From positions 64,001 to 128,000 of IMG/VR virus record IMGVR_UViG_3300027749_000040: DNA of 64,000 nt. One strand, given 5' to 3'. Numbering within the stretch: the stretch's first letter is position 1; each line of letters opens with the position of its first letter. The DNA is from a virus. The notes below the pieces were generated by a model that was not told the origin of the DNA, searched no databases, and was given only the letters and a program-made list of their open reading frames with translations. The translations under genes were made by a program, and so were the position numbers. Shown one piece after another: positions 12,463-19,472 of this stretch.

Positions 12463-15400
12463 ATGCTAAGAGATGTATTTTATTTCGGAGAAAAACCCAA
12501 TGTTCACCCTAGAGAAAAGTTTGCAACAGATTTAGTTGACGCTAAACGACAGTGTACAACCGAACACTTTTGGATAATAAACGAACATTGTAATTATAAA
12601 GATTTTGATTGGGACTGGGAGTTTGACTTCCTGCCTGACGAAGATGTATGGGCTGAAGAACACAATAATGTATGGCCAAGTCCCTATCAGAAAGATAGTG
12701 GCACTTGTCTGTGTTCAACTAATTTAGATGCAGTAACAATATATCGTGCTGATGTTGATCCTATACCATTAAAAGATGAAATAACAAACAACTGGAAGAT
12801 TATTGAGTACATTGATGAATCTAAATTTGATTTTAAATGGCACCCAGACCCAAACGATCCGCCGTACATTTATGTATGGGGTAATAAATGGTATCCCGGT
12901 ACAATCATGCCAACAGTTGAGTATCATGTACCTGGGGCAACAGATAGAAAATATATATTAGACAATTTAGCACCATTATTGCCTATGCCAATGTTGTTTA
13001 ATATTATATATGAGCCTGCTGACTTTGATTATAGTTGGAGACCAGACCCAACTGCACCACCATACATATATGTGTTTGGTAATAATCAACATCCAGCAAG
13101 CGTGATGCCAACAGTTGAGTTTCATGTAGAGGGGGCGACTGAGCGCAAATTCATTGAGAATATTATACCCAAGTTAGCCGCAAGACCCGCTGACTTTGAA
13201 ACACTAGAAAATATTGATCCAACAACATTTGACATGACATGGGTTCCTGACCCGACGGCACCTCCTTACATTTATGCTTGGGGTAATCAATGGAATAAAC
13301 CTGAAGATAAGATTAGTGTTATACGTAGAGTAGAAGGTGCAACTGAATACAAATACATGGAAGCACGTGTAAAACGTAATCCATGTATGGATAACTGGAA
13401 TATACCTAATAACATGTTTCAAAATAAGTTTGACTTTAGCTGGGAACCCAATCCACATGATCCACCATTTATATATCAGTTTGGTACGCAATGGCAAAAG
13501 ACAGGCGGTCCCAAATATGTCGTAGAAGGTGCAACGGAGATAAAATATATAGATGTATTAAAAGCAGAAGTAGTTTGCACACAGTTTGAAAATTGGCAAG
13601 TGCCAAGAAATATAGACCAAACTAAGTTTGATTTTAGCTGGCATCCAGACGATACTGAAGAACCCTTCATTTATCAGTTTCCCGATCAATGGACCCGTAC
13701 AGGTGGTCCTAGATATGTAGTACCAAGCGCAACTGAAATAAAATACATAGATGTACAAATAGCAATTGCTAAACAAGATAAAACACATTGGTCAATACCT
13801 GAAAATATTGATACAACTGACTTTGACTTCAGTTGGCATCCCGACATTGACCATGCACCATTGATATATCAATTCGGTACGCAATGGCAACGAACGGGCG
13901 GTCCTAAATTCTACGCAGTAGGTTGTACTGAAGATAGCGACATACAATATGTGGATACTCTTAAAGCTAAAGCAATAGTTGACATGAGTAACTGGTGTGT
14001 TCCTAACAACTTAGATATAGATACGTTTGATTTTAGCTGGCACCCAGACGCTACAGAAGATCCGTTCATCTATCAGTTTGGAACTGAATACTCTAAAGTA
14101 GGTGGACCTAAGTATACTGTCAACGGAGCAACTGATATCAAATACGTTGCAGATATCATTGCTAAATTGCAACAGAATTATGACAACTGGATTATACCTG
14201 ACTACATTGATAAAGGCTCATTTGATTTTAGTTGGGTACCCGATGTTGAAGACAAGCCTTATATCTATCAGTTCGGTACACAGTGGCAAAAGACAGGTGG
14301 ACCAAAGTATGTAGTAGAGGGTGCATCTGAGATTAAGTATGTTAATGTAATTAAAGCAAAGAAATTGCAACATGAAAATACTGCATGGAAAACATTAATC
14401 AATATAAGTGATTTTGATTTCAGTTGGCATCCCGATGATTCAGATGAACCCTACATATATGTGTTCGGCAATCAATGGAATGATGCTACATTAGAATCTA
14501 CTGTAGAATATCATGTTGAAGGTGCAACACAAAGAAAATATGTTACTGACTTAATTGCTCAGGCAGCACCGTACAAAGAAGATTGGGTCAACGTAGAAGA
14601 TGTAGAAAGTTTTGACTATAGCTGGAGACCTAATCCAACCGACCCTGCATACATATATGTGTTCGGTAATACGCAGTATCCAAACACAATCATGCCAACT
14701 GTCAAGTTAGTAAAACGTGGTGCAACACAAGAAAAGTTTATAGATGATATGGTAGCCACATTGGCACAAAAGCCTGAGTTGTTTATTAACACAAAATTAA
14801 TTAAAGACTTTGATTATTCATGGAGACCTAATCCTAAGGATCCCCCATATGTGTATCAGTTTGGTACACAGTGGGCTAAGACACATGGGCCTCAATTTAC
14901 AGTAGAGGGTGCTACTGAAAGCAAGTTTGTCAACGAACCAGTATCAACTATCTTACCTGATATGACATATTGGGAAATACCAGAGAACGTTGACGTAACT
15001 AAGTTTGACTTTAGCTGGCATCCTGATGCAACTAGCCCTCCGTACATCTATCAGTTTGGTACAATACTAGATGAGAAAGATGGTCCTAGATATATTGTTC
15101 CTGGCAACACTGGTGTTGTTGTTAATATAGAACGTACAGAGATTGTACTAGAAGAATTAGAATTCCCTAAGTATACAATTAAGACTACACTAGAAGATTT
15201 GATTGAAGACCATACCGGTGAAATCTTCTGGGCATTAAACCCTGATTTAGATTATAGTGAGTTTGACTTCAAGTGGGTACCTGATAAACAAAACGTTTAT
15301 CATGTTAACGCATTCGGTAGTAAAGATAACATGAACTCACAAACTTACTTTGTTAACGGTAAGATGTGGCAAAAGGGTTATAGAGATATAAATTATATTG

Positions 15401-17160
15401 AAGATAAAGTAGTTGAAGTTCGTACTAAGATTGACATGTTCTTCATTGACAAGGGCAATAGTGAGTCGCTAGCTAGATTCCAACAACTACGTGAAAGATT
15501 CCCCAACATAACTAAGACAAGATATCTAAACAGTTGGGTAGAAACAATTAATCGTTGTATAACTAAGTCTGAAACAAATTTATGCTGGATATTGAATAGC
15601 GAACTAGATTATACTGACTTTGAATTTGATTACTATCCTAGCCCGTGGCAGATGCGTATGGTACATGTGTTTGGAACTCAATGGAGTCACTGGGGCACAA
15701 CATTCATGGTCAATAAGACTACGTTCCCTGAAGATACAAAGTATGTCAAAATTATTGAGCACTTATCCACATTAAACTTTGTTAAACGTAAGACAGCAAA
15801 AGCAACCAATTGCTTATATGATATTGTAATGATTGACCATGGCAATAAAGAAACACAATATATTCGCAAAATTGTCAAAGACAGAACTGGTAGAGATTCT
15901 GAAATTGTTAAGTACAATAGAAGCTATTTACAAACATTTAAGTCAATGTTGAAAGACATTCAACCTAAGAAAGAACACTATCTTTGGGTATGTTCTAGTA
16001 TCTGTGACTATGAAAACTTTGACTTTAGTTATATATGTGATCCATATGCTAAAGATCAACTGCATGTTTTCCCTAGTGACAAACAAAAGTTTGGAGATAC
16101 ATTCTTAATCGATGTAAGCAAGTTCAAGTTATTAATTGATGATATGATTATGATAGAAGACTATGAGAAGGTTAATTATAATCAACATCAAAGAGTAAAG
16201 CGTTTACCAGCACCCGTTATTATTACAAAAGAAGATACACATGTCACTAATATTCATACTGATTTTGATTGGCCTTACGCTACGTTTGTCACGCAAGACA
16301 ACAAAGAATTAAATGTACATGATAATGAACCTATAAGCTTATGGACACTTGACACCAAGAACATACTGATTACTAGTACAGGTGGAACACGAATTATTGT
16401 CCCTAAAGAAGCAAAAGATTATGTAGAGAATGAACTGTATGATTACCCATACATCAGTCGTAGCAAATCTCTAGCGCAATCCCAGCCATTGGATATAGTC
16501 TTCCTAAGCAACGGAGAAACTGGAGCTGACGAGAACTACGAACACTTACTGAAAGTGACTAAGGGATTACGTAATAGAGTTGTTCGTGTTGATGGCGTGA
16601 ATGGTCGTGTAGCGGCATATCACGCAGCCGCACTAGCAAGCAACACACCTTGGATGTTTACTGTGTTTGCTAAATTAAAAGTCAATAATAAATTTGATTG
16701 GAGTTGGCAACCTGACAGATTGCAAGTTCCTAAGCATTATATCTTTACTGCATCTAACCCAGTAAACAAACTAGAGTATGGTCACCAAGCTATGATTGCC
16801 TACAACAAGCGTATCACACTTGCTAACAATGGTACTGGTCTTGACTTTACGCTTGACAATGAACATGAAGTTATTGAAGTGAATAGCGGTGTTGCTGTGT
16901 ATAATACAGATGCATGGAGTACATGGCGTACTGCATTTAGAGAAGCAATCAAATTAGTTGCCGCAACTGATGATATGTCTAAACAAAGACTTGATGCATG
17001 GTTAAATATTGGTGAAGGAGACTTTGCTCAATATAGTTGCAATGGTGCAAAAGATGCAGTAGAATACTACAATCAAGTCAATGGCGACTTAGACAAATTG
17101 CGTTTAAGTTATGATTGGTTATGGCTAAAAGAATATTATAATAAAAAATACAAATTATGA
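12463..17160 (+). CDS. 1565-aa protein with tandem ~66-aa repeats and C-terminal glycosyltransferase-like (GT-A-like) domains
   Basis: 12 repeats of FDFSWxPD..xPYIYxFGxQW..GP.Y.V.GAT..KY; C-terminal DIVFLS...RVDGVNG...AYHAAA..SNTPW resembles a degenerate GT-A start (inferred). Confidence 0.6.
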   Translation: MLRDVFYFGEKPNVHPREKFATDLVDAKRQCTTEHFWIINEHCNYKDFDWDWEFDFLPDEDVWAEEHNNVWPSPYQKDSGTCLCSTNLDAVTIYRADVDPIPLKDEITNNWKIIEYIDESKFDFKWHPDPNDPPYIYVWGNKWYPGTIMPTVEYHVPGATDRKYILDNLAPLLPMPMLFNIIYEPADFDYSWRPDPTAPPYIYVFGNNQHPASVMPTVEFHVEGATERKFIENIIPKLAARPADFETLENIDPTTFDMTWVPDPTAPPYIYAWGNQWNKPEDKISVIRRVEGATEYKYMEARVKRNPCMDNWNIPNNMFQNKFDFSWEPNPHDPPFIYQFGTQWQKTGGPKYVVEGATEIKYIDVLKAEVVCTQFENWQVPRNIDQTKFDFSWHPDDTEEPFIYQFPDQWTRTGGPRYVVPSATEIKYIDVQIAIAKQDKTHWSIPENIDTTDFDFSWHPDIDHAPLIYQFGTQWQRTGGPKFYAVGCTEDSDIQYVDTLKAKAIVDMSNWCVPNNLDIDTFDFSWHPDATEDPFIYQFGTEYSKVGGPKYTVNGATDIKYVADIIAKLQQNYDNWIIPDYIDKGSFDFSWVPDVEDKPYIYQFGTQWQKTGGPKYVVEGASEIKYVNVIKAKKLQHENTAWKTLINISDFDFSWHPDDSDEPYIYVFGNQWNDATLESTVEYHVEGATQRKYVTDLIAQAAPYKEDWVNVEDVESFDYSWRPNPTDPAYIYVFGNTQYPNTIMPTVKLVKRGATQEKFIDDMVATLAQKPELFINTKLIKDFDYSWRPNPKDPPYVYQFGTQWAKTHGPQFTVEGATESKFVNEPVSTILPDMTYWEIPENVDVTKFDFSWHPDATSPPYIYQFGTILDEKDGPRYIVPGNTGVVVNIERTEIVLEELEFPKYTIKTTLEDLIEDHTGEIFWALNPDLDYSEFDFKWVPDKQNVYHVNAFGSKDNMNSQTYFVNGKMWQKGYRDINYIEDKVVEVRTKIDMFFIDKGNSESLARFQQLRERFPNITKTRYLNSWVETINRCITKSETNLCWILNSELDYTDFEFDYYPSPWQMRMVHVFGTQWSHWGTTFMVNKTTFPEDTKYVKIIEHLSTLNFVKRKTAKATNCLYDIVMIDHGNKETQYIRKIVKDRTGRDSEIVKYNRSYLQTFKSMLKDIQPKKEHYLWVCSSICDYENFDFSYICDPYAKDQLHVFPSDKQKFGDTFLIDVSKFKLLIDDMIMIEDYEKVNYNQHQRVKRLPAPVIITKEDTHVTNIHTDFDWPYATFVTQDNKELNVHDNEPISLWTLDTKNILITSTGGTRIIVPKEAKDYVENELYDYPYISRSKSLAQSQPLDIVFLSNGETGADENYEHLLKVTKGLRNRVVRVDGVNGRVAAYHAAALASNTPWMFTVFAKLKVNNKFDWSWQPDRLQVPKHYIFTASNPVNKLEYGHQAMIAYNKRITLANNGTGLDFTLDNEHEVIEVNSGVAVYNTDAWSTWRTAFREAIKLVAATDDMSKQRLDAWLNIGEGDFAQYSCNGAKDAVEYYNQVNGDLDKLRLSYDWLWLKEYYNKKYKL
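12790..15130 (+). repeat. In-frame tandem repeat array, 12 units of ~198 nt (boundaries approximate)
   Basis: FD(F/Y/M)xW motif recurs from 12826 to 15004 at ~198-nt mean spacing. Confidence 0.85.
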
Positions 17161-18140
17161 AATATCTAATCGTAGAGATGTATATTTCCAAACATTTTGA
17201 AATGTGTGATGAGTTTATACATAAATTAAAAACAGAAGAATATGATGTTTGTATTTTTTATGCACCATCTGAATGGGAATATTGGTTTGTTCATGATTTT
17301 AAAAACTTATGGAATACCATGACAGAAATAATCTATAGTAGAAACAAAAAAATAGAAGTAATTACTGGGGCGGCCAGAGTATTATACGGGGAACCTAAAC
17401 TAGATTATGTCACGGTTCATCCATGGGATACTTATTGGATAACATTAACACATCATAGCCTACAAAATTATGTAAGAGAAACAAAGCTATACACTTACAA
17501 ATACATTTATATGAATAACAATGACCATGCATGGCGTTGTAAACTTATAGATTTGGTAGCTAAGAATAATTTGATTAAGCATGGTGCAGTCTCATGGCAT
17601 AAATTGCGTTATAATTATCCATGGAAATATTTTAAACCTGAAATATTAAAATTAACGGATTCGTTCTCCGGAGATTTTTTTGATATTTTTACACTCCCTG
17701 AAGAATATGATAATTCTTTTATGCAATTGATTAGTGAAACTACTGTCAATGCTCTTTTTATTACGGAAAAAACAGCTATACCACTACTAACATCTAAACC
17801 ATTTTTAGTAGCATCTGTTACTGGTTATCATGCACATTTAAAAAAATTAGGATTTGAGTTATATACTGAAATTTTTGATTATTCATTTGATGATGAAATT
17901 GACGAAGATATAAGATATCAAAAATTACTTAGTAATTTAATTAAAATATGTAATTATTCAAAAGATCAACTAACATCAGCTCACCATCTGATTAAAGAAA
18001 AACTGTTGTTTAATCAAAACAGAGCAATAGAAATTGCAACCAAAAATATTAATAAACCTAGTATTTTAAATAATTTTCCCGAAAAGTTTTGGCATTCCGA
18101 TTCAATGATATATAATAAATATATGTTTATGACTGTATGA
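17157..18140 (+). CDS. Putative glycosyltransferase-like protein (ET..FxTEK..P family)
   Basis: ISETT...FITEKTAIPL...PFLV...LKKLGFE...FDYSFD; paralog of 47764..49074. Confidence 0.5.
   Translation: MKYLIVEMYISKHFEMCDEFIHKLKTEEYDVCIFYAPSEWEYWFVHDFKNLWNTMTEIIYSRNKKIEVITGAARVLYGEPKLDYVTVHPWDTYWITLTHHSLQNYVRETKLYTYKYIYMNNNDHAWRCKLIDLVAKNNLIKHGAVSWHKLRYNYPWKYFKPEILKLTDSFSGDFFDIFTLPEEYDNSFMQLISETTVNALFITEKTAIPLLTSKPFLVASVTGYHAHLKKLGFELYTEIFDYSFDDEIDEDIRYQKLLSNLIKICNYSKDQLTSAHHLIKEKLLFNQNRAIEIATKNINKPSILNNFPEKFWHSDSMIYNKYMFMTV
18111..18121 (+). promoter_or_regulatory. Probable tmRNA precursor promoter (overlapping TATAAT and TAAATA)
   Basis: TATAATAAATA about 10 nt upstream of the first tmRNA-pairing segment. 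Confidence 0.45.
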
Positions 18141-18192
18141 AGTAGACAGAAAAGGATTCAAGACGCGGGGGCAGTGCCCGCCAGGTCCACCA
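18131..18192 (+). ncRNA. ssrA: Two-piece (permuted) tmRNA, acceptor piece; 5' boundary approximate
   Basis: GAC-GCGGG-GGCAGTG-CCCGC T-arm followed by CAGGTCC-A-CCA; pairs with GGGCCTG at 18533 including G3-U70. Confidence 0.9.
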
Positions 18193-18204
18193 TAAGGAAG
18201 TTTA

Positions 18205-18519
18205 ATGAAGATAAGTGAGTTAACATCAGGATACTTGGGACAGATTGCTAAGTTAAATTGGCAACCGGTCAACAAGAGTGTATGGAATTCTATTCAAGAT
18301 GAAGGTCTTGACGAAGAACAAGACACACCCAATCCTGCCGACTGGCTCATGGCGTCATTAAATATTACACCAGATGATGCTCAAGCATTGATGGCATATG
18401 AAGATGATGCAATTGAAGAATTTAATCGTTTTGATATTGCATTGAAGCAACGCTATCCTGGCATGGTAGATTTAATTGATTACGACAACGGTACTGTTAC
18501 TATTGTCAAAGTCAAGTAA
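18205..18519 (+). CDS. 104-aa acidic hypothetical protein encoded inside the tmRNA intervening segment
   Basis: AAGGAAG RBS directly after the tmRNA CCA; open frame fills nearly all of 18193-18532. Confidence 0.75.
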   Translation: MKISELTSGYLGQIAKLNWQPVNKSVWNSIQDEGLDEEQDTPNPADWLMASLNITPDDAQALMAYEDDAIEEFNRFDIALKQRYPGMVDLIDYDNGTVTIVKVK

Positions 18520-18532
18520 GTTTTCTTATGAT

Positions 18533-18713
18533 GGGCCTGACACAGGATCGATTGGGTCACAAGTATTGAAATGGACAGTCCGGCAATGTAGAAGCCGTTA
18601 GGATTGGGGTCTCCCGGTCGCAGACACAAAAAACGTAAATGCAAACGACGAACTTTTTGCCTTAGCGGCCTAAACACCGCTTAGGGGAACTATCCCTCGT
18701 AACAGAAAATAGT
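18533..18713 (+). ncRNA. ssrA: Two-piece (permuted) tmRNA, coding piece, tag ANDELFALAA; 3' boundary approximate
   Basis: 5' GGGCCTGA..GGATCGA; TTGGGTC pairs with GATTCAA and ACAGTC with GACTGT of the acceptor piece; tag frame 18641-18673 after TAAAT; AGCGG/CCGCT helix encloses the stop. Confidence 0.9.
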
Positions 18714-18738
18714 AATAGGCTCCTAGGAGCCTATTTTT
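18714..18738. terminator. Terminator hairpin between tmRNA and convergent lipoprotein gene, possibly bidirectional
   Basis: Perfect palindrome AATAGGCTCCTAGGAGCCTATT followed by a T run. Confidence 0.8.
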
Positions 18739-19162
18739 ATGGTGTACATGGACCTGTAACAAATCCACCAGCATCTGGTCTACAAGTTGTAGGCAACGGT
18801 GTGCAAGGGCCAACAATAAACCCGTCCCTACAGTAGTTGATTACAGGTTGTGTTATAACGCTGGGTCCAATTACTACGGGGGGAGTCACAATGACTGTTG
18901 GGCCTACTACTGGTCCTGTTACAAATGTCACAGTGGGTGGTGTAGGCCCAACAACTACTGGGCTGGGAACAGTGCCACTGGGTCCAACTACAAACTGCGG
19001 GGCAGTGGGTGCTGGGCCAGGGCCAACCACAAACGGTGGAGGGATGTCAGCAAGTGACTGTGCTGATAATTTTACTATTTGTGGTTGTGGTGTATCTGTT
19101 GCAGTGCCTACACCGCAGGCAGTTAATGCTGTTACTAATAACAGTGATGCAATTTTTCTCAT
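18737..19162 (-). CDS. Pro/Val/Gly-rich lipoprotein with (F/V)(V/I)xGP repeats
   Basis: Start re-called at 19162 (AAGGAA RBS); MRKIASLLLVTALTAC lipobox; 8 repeats; 4 C-terminal Cys. Confidence 0.7.
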   Translation of the reverse strand: MRKIASLLLVTALTACGVGTATDTPQPQIVKLSAQSLADIPPPFVVGPGPAPTAPQFVVGPSGTVPSPVVVGPTPPTVTFVTGPVVGPTVIVTPPVVIGPSVITQPVINYCRDGFIVGPCTPLPTTCRPDAGGFVTGPCTP

Positions 19163-19472
19163 GGTAATTTCCTTGGTTAGGAAACTTCTTAAGAAAAAGC
19201 TCTCTAAGCACAACTTAGAATTTGGGAACTCTGTCCTAATATTTTTTAAGTCTCAGGGATATTTATCGTTTATATTTTTGATATTAATTTAATTTTAATT
19301 AATTACCAATAGAAATAACCGCACTTTAAAGAATTTTTTACCTTATACACTTACTTATTGCGTAACTAGTGTGTATACTTTACAGCATGAACTATTTTAT
19401 TTAAACAGTATTTTGTTTACTAAATATAAGTCTAGCCTGATGAGTCAGGCTTATTTTTTAAAAGGAAATTAA

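Follow-up and report, generated by a model that had tools for sequence, protein, structure and literature searches.

Permuted transfer-messenger RNA (tmRNA) genes, which encode a two-piece tmRNA, were reportedly described by Keiler, Shapiro and Williams in 2000 and by Sharkady and Williams in 2004 from Alphaproteobacteria, some Betaproteobacteria and Cyanobacteria. In such a gene, an acceptor piece with an encoded CCA is followed by a spacer and then by the coding piece. The spacer is typically short and non-coding, and it is usually treated as throw-away RNA. We analysed a permuted tmRNA gene of a large, uncultured freshwater phage in which the spacer is 340 nucleotides (nt) long and holds a protein gene with a ratio of nonsynonymous to synonymous substitution rates (dN/dS) of 0.13. 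The locus lies in a stretch of 64,000 nt (hereafter the window), positions 64,001 to 128,000 of the IMG/VR virus record IMGVR_UViG_3300027749_000040. The record is 174 kb in length, with a completeness of ~50% (CheckV), and the G+C content of the window is 30-40%. The phage gene shares with the bacterial ones the order of acceptor piece, encoded CCA, spacer and coding piece, the G3:U70 pair and a tag ending in LAA, and removal of the spacer by tRNA-processing enzymes is presumed in both.

The permuted tmRNA families in Rfam are RF04321 and RF01849-RF01851. As a baseline, 146 of 151 genomes in the class of an alphaproteobacterial Bauldia metagenome-assembled genome carried RF04321 over its cut-off. 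The span of RF04321 was 181-343 nt among the matches listed over cut-off in alphaproteobacterial genomes (a single ordinary match of 223 nt in genome G044, for example) versus 543 nt in the window, where the spacer accounts for the greater length by holding a selected protein gene with its own Shine-Dalgarno (SD) sequence.

A tmRNA database paper of 2025 with 97,179 sequences mentions one spacer with a tRNA-Ala gene and another with a repeat element; in its available text, no protein gene is reported in a spacer and the term 'ORF' does not occur (PMC11915505). Another paper lists 53 two-piece phage tmRNAs, one of them beside a glutamine riboswitch; the word 'intervening' is absent from it, and its available passages make no mention of a coding spacer (PMC9004378). 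Our literature searches found no description of a protein gene in a tmRNA spacer and, within the literature searched, no published description of a permuted tmRNA gene with a standardised coding spacer.

Here we argue that the locus is probably a functional phage two-piece tmRNA gene in which the spacer also serves as an expression slot for protein genes, with translation preceding processing of the transcript. In this phage lineage the spacer would be a standardised expression site for which a helix of the precursor supplies the stop codon as well as the ribosome-binding site. At least about 30 different genes, including one for a thioredoxin, appear to have entered this site and to have been exchanged between phages.

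The permuted tmRNA gene and the gene in its spacer

Employing the Rfam model RF04321, we found a complete permuted tmRNA at 18131-18673 of the plus strand (99.8 bits relative to a cut-off of 47; model positions 1-213); a second model, RF01849, also exceeded its cut-off at the same locus (55 vs 50). All features described below are on the plus strand unless stated otherwise. The acceptor piece (18131-18192, RF04321 positions 1-63) starts with the 5' strand of the long helix. As read against the Rfam alignment, it continues with the T-arm (18165-18181), the acceptor 3' strand (18182-18188), the discriminator A18189 and the encoded CCA (18190-18192). The spacer (18193-18532) appears as one long insertion in the alignments to RF04321 and RF01849. 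The coding piece (18533-18712, 3' end approximate; RF04321 positions 87-213, and RF01849) contains the acceptor 5' strand, a D-loop-like region, the return strand of the long helix and the mRNA-like region. From the mature 5' end, G18533, the acceptor 5' strand (18533-18539) pairs with 18182-18188 over 7 bp with probabilities of 0.985-1.0, and the alanine identity pair G3:U70 is formed by G18535 and U18186 (0.999). The frame for the tag, ANDELFALAA followed by TAA, is located at 18641-18673 and aligns to the tag region of RF04321; tags in related loci include ANDSVYALAA, ANDEVFALAA and ANDERFEVRLAA.

The T-arm, the acceptor 3' strand and CCA thus all precede the acceptor 5' strand and the tag frame; the tmRNA gene is intact and permuted. 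ARAGORN, run on the window, did not call it; the length of the spacer is the presumed reason, and gene finders may overlook tmRNA genes of this kind. BLASTN of 17900-18900 against 50,697 phage records returned no match, and smpB was not found in the 174-kb record, which represents only about half of the genome.

A preliminary description of the window had placed CCA at 18190-18192 and the mature 5' G at 18533, with the 340-nt gap filled by an open reading frame (ORF) of 104 amino acids (aa) at 18205-18519; both the sequence and the Rfam alignments bear this out. The ORF runs from ATG to TAA, is the sole long frame in the spacer and encodes an acidic protein (pI 4.07). With a word-index search, we found 37 clusters of close homologues (102-123 aa, 48-100% identity), and an exhaustive phmmer search gave 155 representatives at E <= 0.001, many of them outside tmRNA genes. 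The homologues align in invariant or near-invariant blocks, and a domain of ~95 aa with the conserved motifs IQDEGLDEEQ, EEFNRFDIALK and DLIDYDxGT could be delimited (alignments A1 and A2). Ten copies nested in tmRNA genes gave a median pairwise dN/dS of 0.13 (42 pairs), dN/dS being the measure that the preliminary description had proposed for this ORF. Judged by these substitutions, by the conserved blocks, by the homologues outside tmRNA genes and by a confident structure prediction (see below), the ORF at 18205-18519 is a genuine gene under purifying selection.

AlphaFold2 predicted an alpha/beta structure for the 104-aa protein from an alignment of 82 sequences, with a mean predicted local distance difference test score of 93.3. 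No family in Pfam or PHROGs accommodated the protein (best, HTH_micro with E = 0.1, under its cut-off). The best match of the model in the PDB by Foldseek had only E = 0.16. In a wide VIA-align search, the best hit was an R3H domain at Z = 5.1, under the level that the tool calls meaningful, and the other rows (R3H, KhpB, Smr and IF3-like, Z = 3.3-4.6) were also below that level. In the ESM Atlas, the shape search stayed below a template modelling score of 0.5 and the feature search reached at most 0.80, with no convincing neighbour. The pI of 4.1 agrees poorly with an RNA-binding role. The acidic character of the protein and its occurrence as a module of large multi-domain phage proteins (see below) hint at a role in host takeover or counter-defence.

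Homologues of the 104-aa protein at 74% identity or less are not nested in tmRNA genes. Free-standing homologues lie in an operon together with an IF1-like gene and with genes for superoxide dismutase and Fe-S assembly; in some cases the operon contains an inserted HNH gene. One homologue (74% identity) is directly 3' of a GOLLD RNA (RF02032, 212 bits; L056:170-632), and another (70%) is 3' of a 5'-truncated GOLLD match with a GIY-YIG gene intervening (L058:1-205). A third (69%; L057:684-1239) ends 38 nt 5' of the TTGACA/TATCAT promoter of another permuted tmRNA; it is upstream of that tmRNA and not inside it, and the contig ends within the tmRNA. The family is thus associated with two different large structured phage RNAs, GOLLD and tmRNA.

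The domain of the 104-aa family also occurs as an internal module of ORFs of 238-993 aa in the standard code. In 11 loci (L015-L017, L029-L034, L036 and L038, ~1501-1790 in each), the ~95-aa domain is inside ORFs of 567-993 aa. ORFs bearing the module also carry GNAT, ParB_N, dCMP deaminase and nucleotidyltransferase (NTP_transf_2) domains and a weak ART-PolyVal match. Phage polyvalent proteins, with modules that recur in very large multi-domain ORFs, were reportedly described by Iyer et al. in 2017; the module-bearing ORFs may resemble these in architecture, and no curated family links them. In one phage of 335 kb, the fused form coexists with a permuted tmRNA at another place in the genome, the spacer of which is 72 nt long and ORF-less. 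The maximum-likelihood tree of the protein family is a polytomy, by which a single origin of nesting is neither shown nor excluded.

The closing helix and the genes of related spacers

The two ends of the spacer are joined by a closing stem. Its 5' strand (18191-18204) consists of CA of CCA and the first 12 spacer bases and includes the SD sequence AAGGAAG (18195-18201). Its 3' strand (18517-18530) includes the TAA stop codon (18517-18519) and the UG that pairs with CA of CCA. The sequence agrees with the preliminary description in that the stem comprises 14 bp, three of them G-U (18197-18524, 18200-18521 and 18201-18520), that the SD sequence and the stop codon are both held in it, and that ATG directly follows its 5' strand.

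To compare this stem with others, we assembled phage tmRNA loci recognised by a 3'-side-only pattern (GAT plus the acceptor 5' strand) together with loci found by their 5' junction. In the 92 distinct phage stems, the first 13 positions (C75/G-3, A76/U-4, then spacer bases 1-11 with their partners) were canonical pairs in 95% of cells; when the partner strand was slid by 1-3 bases, only 43-56% were. At stem positions 5-12, each position showed 5-8 canonical pair types (GC, CG, GU, AU and UA at one of them, for example). The conservation and covariation by which the preliminary description had proposed to judge the stem were therefore found, and they held separately for 43 ORF-less and 49 ORF-bearing stems. 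A 2x2 internal loop lies between the closing helix and the acceptor stem. In minimum free energy and centroid folds of the 588-nt precursor (z = -3.7), the T-arm and the acceptor stem were recovered together with the proximal part of the closing stem. For the whole precursor, the ViennaRNA partition function gave the eight acceptor-proximal pairs (18191-18198) probabilities of 0.79-1.0 and the ninth 0.32.

Because ORF-less spacers of the same tmRNA family carry the same covarying stem, the closing helix is, on this comparative evidence, a general extension of the acceptor stem in the phage tmRNA lineage and not special to the 104-aa gene. As stated in the preliminary description, the stem holds the SD sequence and the stop codon; it was not made for the gene. 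SD-like purine runs were present in 10 of 14 distinct ORF-bearing 5' strands vs 6 of 44 ORF-less ones (Fisher p = 9e-5). It appears that a general precursor helix was co-opted in those spacers that carry a gene.

The junction CCA-TAAGGAAGTT was found in 105 IMG/VR stretches. As a search word, we used a 17-mer comprising the acceptor end, CCA and ten bases at the start of the spacer. It had 37 matches in 596 Gb of bacterial and archaeal genomes, none of them in a tmRNA context, and by our own estimate roughly 70 would be expected by chance. With matches not above chance and none in a tmRNA, the junction looks phage-specific. The spacers 3' of the junction were 100-415 nt in length, and nearly all had an ORF beginning 11-12 nt past CCA. 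They contained 62 distinct ORFs of 21-133 aa that fell into ~30 clusters unlinked by BLASTP. One cluster consists of an 84-aa thioredoxin with a WCGPC motif (Pfam E = 4e-21); among the other cargos, a 122-aa protein is found in 11 loci, and there are also short hydrophobic peptides and proteins of 54-84 aa. Apart from the 104-aa family, the cargo clusters mostly showed dN/dS of 0.11-0.22. All 20 relatives sampled across cargo types gave full matches to the permuted tmRNA model (tmRNA_permuted, 78-141 bits).

Both ends of the cargo frames were placed in a standard manner. The start codon was 11-12 nt past CCA in 45 of the 62 ORFs. In 47 of the 62, the frame ran through the 3' strand of the helix and ended in ..VSL, ..VFL or ..DSL, with TGA one base before the mature 5' G. 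Since the UG of this usual TGA pairs with CA of CCA, the RNA structure itself supplies the stop codon. Eleven ORFs, that of the window included, had their own stop 12-13 nt earlier than the usual TGA. In the sample collected from the 3' side only, a spanning ORF of at least 25 aa was present in 15 of 62 tmRNA loci; such an ORF was found in 12 of the 24 spacers of at least 100 nt in this sample, relative to 9.5% after shuffling. The same architecture recurred in more than 100 phage contigs. The coding-spacer architecture is far above chance, as established by this recurrence and by the comparison with shuffled spacers.

As separate observations on the cargos, those of 122 aa and 133 aa (L087, L095, L115 and others) start with MRINE(I/V), like the members P0020, P0021 and P0024 of the 104-aa family; first codons common to otherwise unrelated cargos may mark a recombination joint. 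A COG2908 RNA motif (RF02939, 70.9 bits; L115:159-203) lies ~2 kb upstream of the tmRNA with the 133-aa cargo.

The preliminary description had suggested, as its most speculative idea, that the loop between the two tmRNA pieces may be a protected slot for exchangeable cargo genes; of its ideas, this one came out best supported. The variety of cargo families and their shared start and stop frame agree with this suggestion, as does the shuffling of cargos and backbones. In 30 pairs of loci, the cargo was at least 90% identical in nucleotides, whereas the tmRNA backbones were only 64-77% identical; between L095 and L146, the cargo was 100% and the backbone 68% identical. The backbone of the window was 93%, 92% and 91% identical to backbones with cargos of 68 aa, 122 aa and 64 aa, respectively, but only 66% identical to that of L126, which carries the same 104-aa gene. 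Compared to 18131-18673 of the window, L024:337-888 is identical in the acceptor piece, the ORF and the start of the coding piece and differs in the tag region (ANDAYFGEDRLAA vs ANDELFALAA), which points to a recombination breakpoint within the coding piece. These comparisons support the view that cargo and backbone are uncoupled and that the spacer is an exchange slot for cargo genes. The uncoupling is most simply explained by recombination in the conserved flanks, which would account for exchange and not for the first entry of a new gene into the frame. Two further loci with the cargo of the window (L025:1815-2040 and L059:381-605) have apparent tag frames that are much longer after the GCA AAC resume region, possibly misread frames.

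Proposed translation and processing of one precursor

A sigma-70-like candidate promoter, TTGGCA-16-TATAAT (18089-18116), matches the consensus at 11 of 12 positions; it was recognised by consensus match only. It is located upstream of the acceptor piece and within the 3' end of ORF 17157-18140, and related loci have comparable -10 boxes 5' of the acceptor piece. The tmRNA unit is closed by an intrinsic terminator at 18714-18740, a 9-bp hairpin with T runs on both strands that acts two ways and also faces the convergent minus-strand ORF 18737-19213; a hairpin with a T tract is also present 3' of the coding piece in related loci. No plus-strand terminator was found between this promoter and this terminator. 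The convergent ORF (158 aa) has a lipoprotein-like N-terminus and a body rich in P, G, T and V, and it matches an Rz-like spanin PHROG only weakly (E = 0.064). Further upstream, a 1565-aa ORF (12463-17160) contains many repeats of the type FDFSW.PD....PYIY.FG.QW...GGP.Y and has no Pfam family.

We propose that a single transcript, from ~18089-18116 to 18714-18740, would lead from the acceptor piece through the 104-codon gene to the coding piece, and would serve as messenger and as stable-RNA precursor. In gene-bearing spacers, the 5' strand of the helix would have been turned into an SD sequence with an adjacent start codon, and the 3' strand would give the end of the frame, usually ..VSL and TGA one base before the RNase P site and, for the gene of the window, a TAA of its own at the stem's distal edge. 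Ribosomes would load on the SD sequence during ongoing transcription. In partition function folds of the growing transcript, the SD sequence was 64-70% unpaired up to 18350, so that loading during transcription could take place; once 18517-18532 were present, the unpaired fraction dropped to 18% for the SD sequence and to 2% for AUG. After the 3' strand had been transcribed and the last ribosome had gone, the stem would shut, the tRNA-like domain would fold, and RNase P together with 3' trimming would free the two tmRNA pieces. By this order of events, each precursor would first yield protein in a short burst and thereafter a single tmRNA. A ribosome that stops at the usual TGA would sit over the acceptor 5' strand, so that a given molecule could either be translated or fold its tRNA-like domain, but not both at once. 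From the predicted folds we infer that the gene is translated from the precursor, and the same folds, with the geometry of the stop codon, suggest that its translation may be coupled to tmRNA processing. Translation would then be physically tied to the maturation of a ribosome-rescue RNA, and the locus would offer a compact natural system for competition between ribosomes and RNase P on one RNA. As the flanks of the spacer are conserved tmRNA sequence, we further propose that recombination between co-infecting phages swaps the cargo.

Several points weigh against this scheme. The cargo clusters were separated by BLASTP only, and remote homology between some of them is possible. Two clusters were weakly constrained, with dN/dS of 0.57 and 0.89 (the latter barely diverged). 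The junction scan fixed the 5' strand by design, and the unbiased 3'-pattern sample gives the lower ORF share of 15 in 62. In the window, the five distal pairs of the stem are predicted to be weak (probability <=0.03). The gene of the window stops 13 nt before the mature 5' end, and a ribosome there would cover the helix and barely reach the acceptor stem; with the stop that much further upstream, the footprint argument is weaker in the window than in the majority class. The translate-first order is derived solely from equilibrium folding of naked RNA. Finally, the unit contains an internal sigma-70-like match, TTGTCA-18-TATGAT (18503-18532). As a separate promoter of the coding piece, it was rejected as the main route because a transcript starting ~7 nt past its -10 box would lose the acceptor 5' strand.

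Different roles of the spacer and its helix may also be considered. Translation might take place mainly after processing, with the excised spacer of ~340 nt acting as a stabilised mini-mRNA closed by the stem, which would protect it from exonucleases and throttle initiation. The tRNA-type processing sites do define the ends of the spacer, the stem unites both ends of the excised piece, and the cargo ORFs occupy the spacer almost exactly. In the closed form, however, the SD sequence and AUG would be largely paired (predicted unpaired probabilities of 0.18 and 0.02), and the excised piece would have only a two-base single-stranded 3' tail and no 5' triphosphate; we regard this possibility as unlikely. 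Alternatively, the gene could simply be parked in neutral space within a strongly transcribed and recombination-prone RNA gene, with a stem that serves processing only, an SD-like sequence and a shared stop that are by-products, and no mutual influence of translation and maturation. Small ORFs are known to cluster in the tRNA and RNA-gene regions of phages. Parking would also agree with the presence of the same covarying stem in ORF-less spacers, with a UGA forced by the pairing of UG with CA of CCA, and with 104-aa homologues that adjoin GOLLD RNA or lie upstream of another tmRNA. The enrichment of SD-like purine runs in ORF-bearing 5' strands argues against it, and the placement of starts and stops is tighter than parking alone requires. 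Because the ribosome-binding site overlaps the processing helix, full independence of translation and maturation is unlikely, and we consider a merely parked gene quite improbable.

That the tmRNA is dead, split by an insertion and with its halves decaying, might be suspected from the unusually long spacer and from the missing ARAGORN call. The full-length high Rfam scores in the window and in all 20 relatives tested speak against decay. So do the acceptor stems, which covary between loci (GGGCCTG/CAGGTCC, GGGCCGG/CCGGTCC, GGGCCAG/CTGGTCC and GGGGGTG/CACCTCC), the retention of canonical tag frames and the preservation of the layout across backbones just 64% identical. A dead tmRNA is therefore highly improbable. 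Going beyond the translate-then-process scheme that we prefer, the helix could be a ribosome-operated gate: passage of ribosomes along the spacer gene and their release would time or license tRNA-like folding and RNase P cleavage, and the conserved flanks would make the spacer a cassette site by which phages exchange small early genes. We regard this extension as doubtful; if true, the translational state of the infected cell would determine how much phage tmRNA is supplied.

Comparison with known systems

Among described phages, the OM43 phage Melnitz and the pelagimyophages (aquatic T4-like phages) are like the phage analysed here in carrying a permuted ssrA of the alpha/beta type, and in the available passages on them no phage smpB was found either, a likeness limited by the 50% completeness of our record (PMC9004378). 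Group I introns in tmRNA genes, some with homing-endonuclease genes, resemble the present locus in that a tmRNA gene harbours a protein gene and that removal takes place at the level of RNA; according to the available text, they occupy a T-loop site, splice themselves and have a selfish nuclease as cargo (PMC11915505). The spacer genes, in contrast, sit at the natural break between CCA and the 5' end, would require ordinary end-processing only and are diverse, non-nuclease cargos. Rfam identified no group I intron in the window, where only the two tmRNA families were over threshold. As a cassette site, the spacer is loosely comparable to an integron; neither an integrase nor an attachment site was identified here.

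In hok mRNA, fold-back of the transcript inhibits translation, and in the RNA phage MS2 an SD sequence is sequestered by long-range pairing. In both, as proposed for the spacer gene, pairing between distant 5' and 3' segments occludes the ribosome-binding site until remodelling; the analogy is functional, with no relationship in sequence or family. Transcripts in which mRNAs are released or delimited by tRNA processing are represented by mitochondrial tRNA punctuation and by the tRNA-tufB and tyrT-tpr co-transcripts of E. coli. Like the proposed precursor, they combine a stable-RNA precursor and an mRNA in one transcript, and cuts of the RNase P type set the ends of the mRNA. Unlike in these systems, both ends of the mRNA would here be set by one tRNA-like domain that is assembled from the two flanks of the gene.

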